Positions 16,087-18,133 are shown, numbered from the stretch's first letter. The stretch is DNA of 64,000 nucleotides from an uncultured Rhizobium sp. (GCA_964447395.1 CAYUSO010000006.1:10154-74153), one strand, 5' to 3'. Notes: a model not told the origin generated them from the letters alone. Made by a program: numbers and translations.

Positions 16087-18133
16087 TTTTTTGTTTTTTT
16101 TCTCGAAATTTATTTTTGATGTAAATCATCACCGCCATCACCGAAGCGGGTGTGATGCCTTGAATCTTAAAGGCTGCCGCGATTGTCGCTGGACGAAATT
16201 TATTTAATTTTTCTCGCACTTCGAGCGACAGACTCTGAATAGCGGAGTAGTCAAGATCAAGCGGAATTTTCATGTTTTCATCTTGACGAAAAATTTCCAA
16301 ATCTTGCTGCTGACGCTTGAGATAAGAGCTGTAGAGCGCATCAATTGCGATTTGTTTTTTTGTCTTCTCGTCAATTTGAGAAATTTCCTGCGGCCAAATT
16401 TTTTCCAAAGTTTCGAAATTAATTTCTTGGAAAGATAAAAGTTGTAAAGCGTTGCGGACTACTCCGTCTTGCTTCATGGCGATTCCGAAATCGGAAATTT
16501 TTTTCGGCGAGATTTTTAAATTTTCCAACAACTCAACCGCAGAATTAATTTTTGATTTTTTTTCGTAGAAAAATTTTTTACGTTCAGCGCCAACAACTCC
16601 GATTTTAATTCCCATTTCCGTCAGACGAAAATCAGCATTATCAGCGCGCAAACTGAGACGATATTCAGCGCGCGAGGTTAACATTCGGTAAGGTTCAGAA
16701 GTTCCGAGAGTTGTGAGATCATCAATCATCACGCCGATATAACTCGAAGCGCGATCGAGGATGAATTCTTCTTTATGCGCCTCCATCGCGCCGCTAACGC
16801 GTTCGCTCGATCCTCCTAAATAGGAGGATCCTTTATGCACCTCCATCGCGCCGCTAAATTTTTTTATATTATTCGCAACCAACGCCGCGTTGATTCCAGC
16901 GACAATGCCCTGCCCCGCTGCTTCCTCATATCCGGTGGTTCCGTTGATTTGTCCGGCGAGAAAAAATCCACGGATTTTTTTAGTTTCGAGCGTCGGCAAA
17001 AGTTGGCGCGGATCAACAAAATCATATTCAATCGCATATCCCGCTTGCGTGACGCGACAATTTTCTAAGCCCGGAATTGTTCTTAAAAATTCGATTTGCA
17101 CTTCAAGCGGCAACGAAGTTGAAATGCCGTTGGGATAAATTAAATCGCTGTCTAAGCCTTCAGGTTCTAAGAAAATTTGATGACGCTCTTTGTCGGAAAA
17201 ACGGTGAATTTTATCTTCAATCGAAGGGCAATAACGCGGGCCGACGCCAGAAATATGTCCGCCATACATCGCCGATTTTTGTAAATTTTTTTGGATGATC
17301 TCGTGCGTTTTTTTGTTGGTGTAAGTGATGAAACAGGAAATTTGCGGAACAGAAATTTTTTCGTTGAGATAGGAAAAAGGCTGTGGCGGCGCATCTCCAG
17401 CCTGTTCCTCAAGATTTGAAAAATCGATGGAATCTTTAGCGATGCGCGGCGGCGTGCCAGTTTTTAGGCGCGCCAACTCGAAATTGTGACGCTCTAGAGT
17501 TTTTGAAAGTCCGTAAGATGGCTCTTCGCCAACACGCCCGGCGGGAATTTTTTCATCGCCGATATGAATTACGCCACGCAAAAATGTGCCGGTGGTGAGA
17601 ATTACGGACTTAGTCGTAAGTCGTGAGTTGTAAGTCGTAAGTGAGGTGTTTGGATTGAGCGGAATTGATAAGTCAACTTCAGAATGACTTACAACTTTCG
17701 ACTTATGACTTACGACTCTAATCGCTTCCACTCTTCCGCCCTCGATCTCAACCTCTTCAACCGATCCAAACATAATTTCTAAATTCGGATAATTTTTCAG
17801 AATTTGATTAATCGCTTTTTTGTAGAGTTTGCGATCGGCTTGCGCGCGCGGCGAGTGAACTGCTGGACCTTTAGAGGCATTTAAAATTCGAAAATGAATT
17901 CCTGCCATGTCGATGGCCTTGCCCATCACGCCATCAAGCGCATCAACTTCACGAACAATTGTTCCCTTTGCCACGCCGCCAATGGCGGGGTTGCAAGACA
18001 TCTCGCCAAGATTTTCTGAATTTTTTGTGACGAGTAAAGTTTTCGCACCCATCCGTGCCGAAGCGCAGGCCGCTTCAATTCCAGCATGCCCCGCACCAAT
18101 CACGATTACGTCAAATTTTGAAGGATTGGTCAT
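16076..18133 (-). CDS. mnmG: tRNA uridine-5-carboxymethylaminomethyl modification enzyme MnmG (GidA), with two in-frame repeat insertions
   Basis: 685 aa. FAD-binding [30 protein letters not shown], and [22 protein letters not shown]. About 60 aa longer than typical MnmG. Confidence 0.97.
16770..16856. repeat. 60-bp-period direct repeat with central palindrome, in frame in mnmG
   Basis: ctttatgcgcctccatcgcgccgctaa at 16770-16796 recurs at 16830-16856 with 1 mismatch. The copies flank the hairpin gatcctcct-aaat-aggaggatc at 16808-16829. Encodes [28 protein letters not shown]. Confidence 0.85.
17608..17720. repeat. Heptamer-tract palindrome B1 (TAAGTCG repeats), in frame in mnmG
   Basis: Left arm acttagtcgtaagtcgtgagttgtaagtcgtaagtgag at 17608-17645. 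Right arm tgacttacaactttcgacttatgacttacgactcta at 17685-17720. Encodes [36 protein letters not shown]. Confidence 0.85.

Follow-up and report, generated by a model that had tools for sequence, protein, structure and literature searches.

An inverted pair of heptanucleotide repeat tracts in frame in the mnmG gene of an uncultured alphaproteobacterium

The mnmG gene in a 64,000-nt stretch of DNA from an uncultured Rhizobium sp. (GCA_964447395.1, CAYUSO010000006.1:10154-74153) carries, in frame, an imperfect palindrome whose two arms are built of tandem heptamers. The whole stretch is referred to as the window; it has a G+C content of 41%, coordinates are counted along it, and the coding strand of mnmG is its minus strand. 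The source names of the homologs suggest that the host lineage is an uncultured alphaproteobacterium. With moderate confidence, we read the mnmG feature as a pair of heptanucleotide simple-repeat tracts in inverted orientation that occupies the tip of a surface beta-hairpin; the pair would have arisen in two steps and would be translated as a functionless passenger loop, with its frame held open by selection.

Results

Anatomy and reading frame of the inverted pair

The palindrome spans 106 bp from arm end to arm end (17612-17717), with two arms of 31 nt (17612-17642 and 17687-17717) that are 84% complementary and have 44 nt between them (Table 1); an alternative register, shifted by one unit, gives 88% complementarity over 25 nt. 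Using Tandem Repeats Finder (TRF), the arms were recognized as period-7 arrays, AGTCGTA in 4.4 copies and GACTTAC in 4.6 copies, with 76-83% matches. The DNA fold of the element was calculated at -18.6 kcal/mol (z = -3.46), which none of 200 shuffled sequences equalled in stability, and the RNA fold at -33.7 kcal/mol. Arm complementarity, repeat detection and folding against shuffles thus bear out an earlier description of the locus made from the sequence alone (the sequence-only reading), namely an imperfect palindrome with tandem 7-mer arms in frame in mnmG. The element is bordered by ...ACGGACTT and CTAATCGC, between which its ends read AGTCG...CGACT. No direct repeat that could represent a target-site duplication was seen at these flanks, where the true ends are uncertain, one arm being resident sequence; and no second copy of the palindrome centre was found in the 64-kb window or in the locus of one relative (L004).

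Table 1. Coordinates of mnmG, the parts of its palindrome, and the other heptamer tracts of the window
Feature	Position	Strand	Description and basis
mnmG open reading frame (ORF)	16076-18133	minus	685 aa; host gene, intact, two lineage-specific inserts; ORF list, phmmer, identical copies in assemblies
3′ arm, coding sense	17612-17642	minus	TTACGAC-type units, stop-free in three frames; TRF period 7, 4.4 copies
Palindrome centre	17643-17685 (43-44 nt)	minus	Lineage-specific; codes most of the predicted disordered loop
5′ arm, coding sense	17686-17717	minus	GTCGTAA-type units, stop-bearing orientation; lineage-specific; TRF period 7, 4.6 copies, 76% matches
AAA (Lys) codon of unit 3	17696-17698	minus	Sole unit with its stop triplet position in frame 0
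One-armed tract of the mnmG heptamer	23258-23290	minus	Within the AFG1/ZapE ATPase gene, in frame; codes for TRLTTYSLQLTTK; TRF, Pfam AFG1_ATPase
Heptamer-armed palindrome (AATTAAG / AATTCTT units)	43080-43178	.	Intergenic; fills the spacer of divergent lpxB and asd; TRF
Heptamer-armed palindrome (TTACGAT / ATCGTAA units)	60007-60160	.	Intergenic; between COQ9-like and aminotransferase genes; TRF

On the coding strand, the 5′ arm reads GTCGTAA GTCATAA GTCGAAA GTTGTAA GTCATTC, and its codons are GTC GTA AGT CAT AAG TCG AAA GTT GTA AGT CAT TCT. The 7-nt period makes the last triplet of successive units cycle through the three frames, and only that of unit 3 falls in frame 0. As the sequence-only reading had pointed out, this every-third-unit TAA position reads AAA; units 1, 2 and 4 retain TAA, all out of frame. 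Frame 0 alone is without a stop across 17606-17725, the other five frames holding 2-5 stops each, and the gene looks functional, in agreement with the earlier claim that the ORF is open across the element. The partner-arm position paired with AAA is a stop triplet in both registers (TAA or TGA), and in the other two window tracts of the mnmG heptamer type, read on the non-coding strand, TAA or TGA stands in 8 of 8 complete units. The two orientations of the repeat differ in what they do to a reading frame: TTACGAC has no stop in any frame and therefore can reside in an ORF, whereas GTCGTAA closes all three frames within three units, so that an inverted pair within a gene survives only with its in-frame unit disarmed.

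The AAA of unit 3 fits selection for an open frame and is not independent proof of it; because the in-frame unit of an open ORF cannot be a stop, the codon adds little beyond the open frame itself. The sequence-only reading had presented AAA as direct evidence that the frame is kept. What stands of this is that a stop was lost where the paired position is still a stop; the wording was too strong, since the change is implied by the open ORF. The stem carries 5 mismatches in 31 positions, and one of them landing in the unit-3 codon is not improbable. The data fit a loss of the stop subsequent to the origin of the arm as well as the survival of none but an arm disarmed beforehand. Non-coding copies with AAA at the equivalent heptamer, named earlier as the observation that would speak against selection in mnmG, did not turn up, no non-coding GTCGAAA copy being found. 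In the comparison proposed for this purpose, an equivalent heptamer is ill-defined, as the copies have just the repeat unit in common and no core.

The gene that holds the palindrome is intact. In phmmer searches its product aligned over the full length with E. coli MnmG (3cp2/3ces; E = 7e-188) in three collinear stretches, leaving residues 137-167 and 421-449 unaligned, and on chain 3cp2_A of E. coli MnmG the sequence alignment sets the heptamer element between positions 156 and 162. The window MnmG agrees with an alignment of 56 sequences in every invariant column, of which there are several hundred. With the full-length alignment and every invariant column kept, the product looks, at the level of its sequence, like a functional enzyme. 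Base-for-base identical mnmG genes were found in three Logan assemblies (L001-L003), each from a different sequencing run, which rules out an assembly artefact. An intein, an intron or an artefact was considered and rejected, given that the sequence lacks splicing features and that the three assemblies are identical.

Resident and lineage-specific parts of the pair

The mnmG loci of relatives were retrieved via exact protein matches and were compared in a DNA alignment and in codon views. In L128 (P0037, 640 aa), L129 (P0039, 624 aa) and L131 (P0026, 636 aa), an in-frame heptamer tract encodes the beta-hairpin at this place. The L128 tract, GGA CTA ACG ACT TAC GAC TTA CGA CTT ACG ACT AAA TCA, is translated as G LTTYDLRLTT KS and consists of GACTTAC in 4.6 copies with 96% matches (TRF); LTTYDLRLTT is the exact translation of (TTACGAC)n. 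A like layout is found in L132 (P0045), with TTACCAC in every unit and LTTYHLPLTT as its translation, and L004 (P0002) has CTCACGA in 4.3 copies at this first mnmG site, where L130 (P0007), 91% identical to L004, has canonical non-periodic sequence. The period-7 autocorrelation was 0.72-0.86 in the tract-bearing mnmG genes, that of the window included, versus 0.21-0.24 in the canonical L127 and L130. The uniform unit change in L132, and the tract of L004 versus the canonical L130, indicate that the mnmG tract acts as a DNA-level repeat.

In the multiple DNA alignment and the codon views, the 3′ arm matches the tracts of L128, L129, L131 and L132 column for column and falls on that of L004, and a single 81-nt gap in L128, L129 and L131 lies opposite the 5′ arm and centre, which were absent from all relatives examined. 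The 3′ arm is thus a resident coding tract, orthologous to the LTTYDLRLTTK tract in the normal-length MnmG of relatives, and not inserted sequence. Since it aligns with the relatives' tracts, the lineage-specific part is therefore the stop-bearing arm plus the spacer, that is, 27 codons and at most 81 nt. The net extra length is 26 aa compared to E. coli and 27 aa (81 nt) compared to the closest tract-bearing orthologs, smaller than the approximately 35 aa estimated at first. The accompanying picture of a 113-bp element inserted whole where orthologs have a short turn has likewise to be given up in view of the aligned 3′ arm.

Placement of the loop on the enzyme

AlphaFold2 was run on MnmG with the 56-sequence alignment and gave a mean predicted local distance difference test score (pLDDT) of 72.9. 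In the model, strands 134-143 and 167-180 flank a loop at 144-166 with pLDDT <50; the heptamer insert is accordingly placed at a beta-hairpin tip and predicted to be disordered. The second MnmG insert (424-453) was modelled with low confidence too. At least 8 extra residues are present at the first site in 18 of 120 homologs and at the second in about 21 of 120. The inserts at both sites (homologs P0006-P0119) are unrelated in sequence and range from 8 to 108 aa; several clearly represent other palindromic repeats in translated form (CHPELV.., FPRRRESS..DSRLRGND..), and some repeat with a period of 7 aa. The two MnmG loops are therefore insertion-tolerant hot spots.

Repeats at the second site were noted on their own account. 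In the window gene, the insert there (residues about 421-450; window 16771-16857, minus strand) is in frame and predicted to be disordered, and its architecture is unlike that of the heptamer element: a 27-nt direct repeat, TTAGCGGCGCGATGGAGG(T/C)GCATAAAG, occurs at 16831-16857 and 16771-16797, with a perfect small hairpin, GATCCTCCTATTTAGGAGGATC (16809-16830), between the two copies. The site-2 insert of L132 contains the hairpin CTCCCCCCTTGAGGGGGAG. In L129, the site holds an in-frame miniature GTCGTAA-type pair, GTCGTAAGTCG...ACTTACGACT (GTC GTA AGT CGC ... ACT TAC GAC), and in L004 (L004:9798-9851) an in-frame pair of CAGTCGA and GACTGAC, each in 3.4 copies, with a loop of only 8 nt. The L004 pair, with units ending in TGA, TGA and, in frame, TGT, was examined as a second in-frame stop removal and was not counted as support, because its TGT pairs perfectly with the other arm and is also present in the intergenic copy of L004; the TGT may be a variant that existed beforehand.

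Heptamer tracts elsewhere

Three further heptamer tracts were found in the window (Table 1). The ZapE tract belongs to an insert of 19 aa that is missing in the L004 ortholog, as seen in both protein and DNA comparison; it begins at a native CGACTT, and the mnmG tract is in phase with the conserved LTTG codons. The palindromes at 43080-43178 and 60007-60160 are both intergenic, between divergent genes. The former matches its own reverse complement at 80% over 90 nt, and the unit of the latter is one base off the mnmG unit, with three TAA in a row at period 7. The window has 8 such triple TAA runs with a spacing of 7 nt, where 0.66 would be expected, and all 8 lie within these tracts. An intergenic inverted heptamer pair was also found in L004 (L004:19334-19392).

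The class is widely spread. A scan of genome contigs with the degenerate pattern (CTYACRR)x3.6 returned at least 126 tracts, all from unrelated phyla and none from this genome. Among these listed tracts, about 12 of 126 are accompanied within 250 nt by an inverted partner, often with a G+C-rich hairpin enclosed by the two. A long frame free of stops runs across 17 of 126, in each case on the CTYACRR strand, and one of these 17 is the Saprospiraceae mnmE tract described below. Heptamer repeats are known to be over-represented in many bacteria and are poorly understood (PMC4692102). A peptide search with the consensus translation of both arms found no large protein with an in-frame palindrome, its matches being short spurious ORFs or N-terminal extensions over intergenic TTACGAC tracts of many phyla. 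Two scans of metagenome contigs, in which the end of the tract was combined with the conserved LTTG codons, gave 0 matches, a protein search with the tract-plus-LTTG peptide gave no candidates, and a literature text search for the repeat string gave only two incidental matches, one in fungal and one in wheat work.

As a separate observation, a metagenome-assembled genome of Saprospiraceae carries an in-frame (CTCACAA)n tract (838-877 and slightly beyond) in mnmE, which encodes MnmG's partner enzyme (L102:36-1223). The NKxD and SAK motifs of the GTPase domain flank the tract, which encodes SHNSQLTTHDSQLTTHNSQLT.

Discussion

Proposed origin of the pair and alternatives

In the reading that we favour, a TTACGAC tract would first have become the coding sequence of the hairpin in the ancestor of this uncultured alphaproteobacterial group. 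An inverted copy of the tract together with a ~44-nt spacer (81 nt in total) would then have been added just upstream, in this lineage only, probably through inverted duplication by template switching or through recombination with another tract. As a GTCGTAA tract would bring TAA into frame at every third unit, only the disarmed version (GTCGAAA) would persist under purifying selection. The 27 extra codons would be translated as a flexible loop without a function of its own and presumably neutral, selection on MnmG keeping the frame open. The retained invariant columns of MnmG and the insertion tolerance of its loops point to a functional enzyme with a passenger loop, a situation demonstrated by experiment for Gmk of Rickettsia, which bears an in-frame palindromic repeat (RPE; PMC2229807).

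Several observations weigh against this two-step origin. The ZapE and mnmG tracts share the 3′ end ACGACTAA and the 5′ flank AGAGTC, so the former resembles a further insertion of a common sequence, in line with a mobile or copy-paste source. The change may also have run the other way, with the relatives losing exactly the 81 nt of the 5′ arm and centre, and a rough neighbour-joining tree sets this genome on a long basal branch, on which either state of the mnmG site could be ancestral. Codon identity within the tract (e.g. 9/12) is not significantly above the gene-wide 0.6, so no separate DNA-level constraint on the tract is shown, and the idea of extra DNA-level conservation was dropped on this ground. 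Finally, the search covered 64 kb, and a family with a conserved core could be present elsewhere in this genome.

A single event could be envisaged instead, in which the whole ~113-bp palindrome is an RPE- or MITE-like non-autonomous mobile element inserted in frame, its stop having been cleared before or after; we consider this unlikely. In-frame palindromic repeats are established in conserved Rickettsia genes (RPE, PMC2229807), and besides the end and flank shared with the ZapE tract, itself missing in L004, a different palindromic repeat, one with a conserved core, has three copies in the window, of which one is in frame in ZapE, and many unrelated inserts occupy the two MnmG sites of homologs. 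A whole insertion is, however, hard to reconcile with the orthology of the 3′ arm to the tract of normal-length orthologs, which limits the gain to at most 81 nt. It is disfavoured further by the dissimilar centres of the elements, the absence of a visible target-site duplication at its uncertain ends, the lack of a second full copy in the 64-kb window or L004, and the lack of a transposase among ten small ORFs scanned.

That the hairpin or the repeat itself is functional, either as a structure modulating mnmG expression or as a slippage-prone on/off (phase-variation) switch for tRNA wobble modification, would agree with the stable RNA hairpin, with a unit length within an ORF that is not a multiple of three, and with the 96% perfect 4.6-unit tract of L128; heptamer tracts abutting the start codons of several genes, here and in relatives, also hint at an expression role. 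But slippage is unlikely in arms so short and imperfect, three independent assemblies agree on the gene base for base, and the 5′ arm and centre are not conserved, so that we regard such a role as quite improbable. Very improbable, too, is that the protein gained the loop adaptively, for instance as a new surface for contacts of MnmG: although the frame is retained and the adjoining strands are predicted to lengthen the hairpin, the loop is predicted to be disordered and is found in one lineage only, and the unrelated inserts of 8-108 aa at this site in other homologs speak for tolerance and not for a specific function. We give little credence to a further idea, in which a DNA process directed by sequence deposits and homogenises heptamer tracts, seeding them at short matching sites, coding DNA included. 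It fits the native CGACTT at the start of the ZapE tract, the LTTG phasing in mnmG, the uniform unit change in L132 and the Saprospiraceae mnmE tract. If it were true, inverted pairs would be its regular product, and the non-triplet repeat of mnmG, a translation-fidelity gene, could be conserved and possibly even switchable.

Relation to known repeat systems

The centres of the mnmG, ZapE and L129 site-2 elements are no more similar to each other than shuffled sequence (p = 0.3-0.7); a conserved core had been suspected by eye (AATCCA.., CACAAAA) and was dropped when shuffling gave no significance. No near-identical full copy of the mnmG palindrome was found in the 64-kb window or L004. Ten small ORFs were scanned as a partial test for a transposase, Y1 transposase included, and none was found; six of them match QueF, ACPS, RuvC, RecR, rhodanese and COQ9, and four have no Pfam match. 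With no conserved core found, no target duplication seen at its uncertain ends and no transposase among the ten small ORFs scanned, membership of the mnmG element in an RPE or MITE family is not supported.

In structure, the mnmG element matches inverted heptameric simple-repeat pairs. The GGGAATC repeats of Xanthomonas form heptamer tracts that lie close together on opposite strands and are capable of stem-loop or cruciform formation, and related genomes differ in repeat length but not in repeat type (Rehm et al. 2015, PMC4692102). Like these, the mnmG tracts comprise at least 3 heptamer units (4.4 and 4.6) and form two close tracts on opposite strands, as do the palindromes at 43080-43178 and 60007-60160, both of which are intergenic as in Xanthomonas. 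Unlike the Xanthomonas repeats, which are intergenic, G-rich and G-quadruplex-forming, the mnmG pair is intragenic and in frame, its GTCGTAA / TTACGAC units have no G runs and carry TAA, and one of its arms is a coding tract across related species. It is in these three respects, the intragenic position, the stop-bearing units in place of G runs and the cross-species coding arm, that the pair differs from the heptamer pairs described.

Among palindromic elements, the RPE of Rickettsia are 105-146 bp long and lie in frame in 19 protein genes (Ogata et al. 2000, reviewed in PMC2229807), and an RPE-bearing Rickettsia Gmk is translated and active (PMC2229807). The mnmG element resembles them as a palindrome of ~100 bp with a long predicted stem-loop, in frame in a conserved alphaproteobacterial housekeeping gene whose ORF is kept and which apparently tolerates it; its 106 bp, 31-nt arms of 84% complementarity and z of -3.46 agree with RPE in size and fold. 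To our knowledge, RPE arms are not built of tandem heptamers. RPE, moreover, have a full-length family consensus, whereas the mnmG-type copies share the heptamer unit only, and half of the mnmG palindrome is resident coding sequence. In Neisseria, ORFs almost never contain the 155-bp form of the Correia/NEMIS elements, in which every frame has stops, and the 107-bp form is open and often ORF-fused (PMC2229807), a reading-frame filter comparable to the stop-free versus stop-bearing arm of mnmG. Correia elements exist in many near-identical copies, with terminal inverted repeats of 24 bp and duplication of a TA target, and none of these features was seen for the mnmG element.

Foldback transposons of Drosophila also have inverted arms made of short tandem repeats, and are eukaryotic, kilobase-scale and transposase-associated; they provide an analogy only, as there is no evidence of mobility for the mnmG element. 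The REP/BIME elements are extragenic palindromes of 20-40 bp tagged GTAG or CGTC, found in genomes with a RAYT gene (PMC3733652), and the mnmG element differs from them in carrying GTAA instead of GTAG, in being intragenic, and in having no Y1 transposase among the ten small ORFs scanned. Phase-variable contingency loci, which have long near-perfect tracts and copy numbers that vary among isolates or within populations, differ as well: mnmG is identical in three assemblies, and its tracts have 4.4-4.6 units with 76-83% matches and are not near-perfect.

One would expect simple repeats with a non-triplet unit to be kept out of essential genes, and here a 7-nt repeat codes a structural hairpin of a universally conserved enzyme across several species, in one of which it would have developed into a full palindrome with a disarmed stop-bearing arm. 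The mnmG palindrome would be a compact natural case of the reading frame filtering which repeat orientations invade genes, and it links in-frame palindromic 'selfish' inserts with the unexplained excess of heptamer repeats in bacteria, which are usually treated apart. The two highly insertion-tolerant loops of MnmG may also be useful for engineering or tagging the enzyme.

Other repeats and neighbouring features

Heptamer tracts bearing TAA abut start codons in the window (43137-43181, 60136-60165 and 37225-37246) and in relatives (L128:6060-6091 and L131:1-30). They read ...TAAATTC(T)ATG at asd and the aminotransferase gene and ...TAAATTATG at lgt, and in two relatives a TAAATGC tract overlaps the called start of ZapE. 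These tracts put stops in all three frames just 5′ of the start, with no obvious Shine-Dalgarno sequence. In distant bacteria, (TTACGAC)n is found directly upstream of genuine gene starts, for example those of tmk, tsaD and a hypothetical-protein call of Burkholderia pseudomallei (P0121, P0125, P0144 and others), and gene callers render it as spurious LRLTTYD-repeat peptides or N-terminal extensions.

Between ZapE and mnmG lies an ORF of 1392 aa (18155-22333, minus strand) with no Pfam match; relatives have a large ORF in the syntenic place, whose length differs greatly (924-1378 aa). No Rfam family reached the gathering threshold anywhere in the 64-kb window, tRNA genes included. A dispersed intergenic hairpin, GACAGATCC...GTTCGGGATCTGTCTTT, occurs at 559-580, 23680-23701, 38264-38290, 38343-38372, 42388-42403, about 60060-60100 and 61397-61426, and one copy forms the centre of the heptamer palindrome at 60007-60160. 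A palindromic repeat family with the conserved core CCCCGAGCGGAGTCGAGGGG ... CCCCTCGACTCCGCTCGGGG has three copies in the window (431-563, 22662-22817 and about 23750-23830); its arms consist of tandem 18-21-nt repeats, and their layering resembles nested hairpins. One of the three (22662-22817) lies in frame within the AFG1/ZapE gene, to which it contributes about 69 aa missing in the L004 ortholog.

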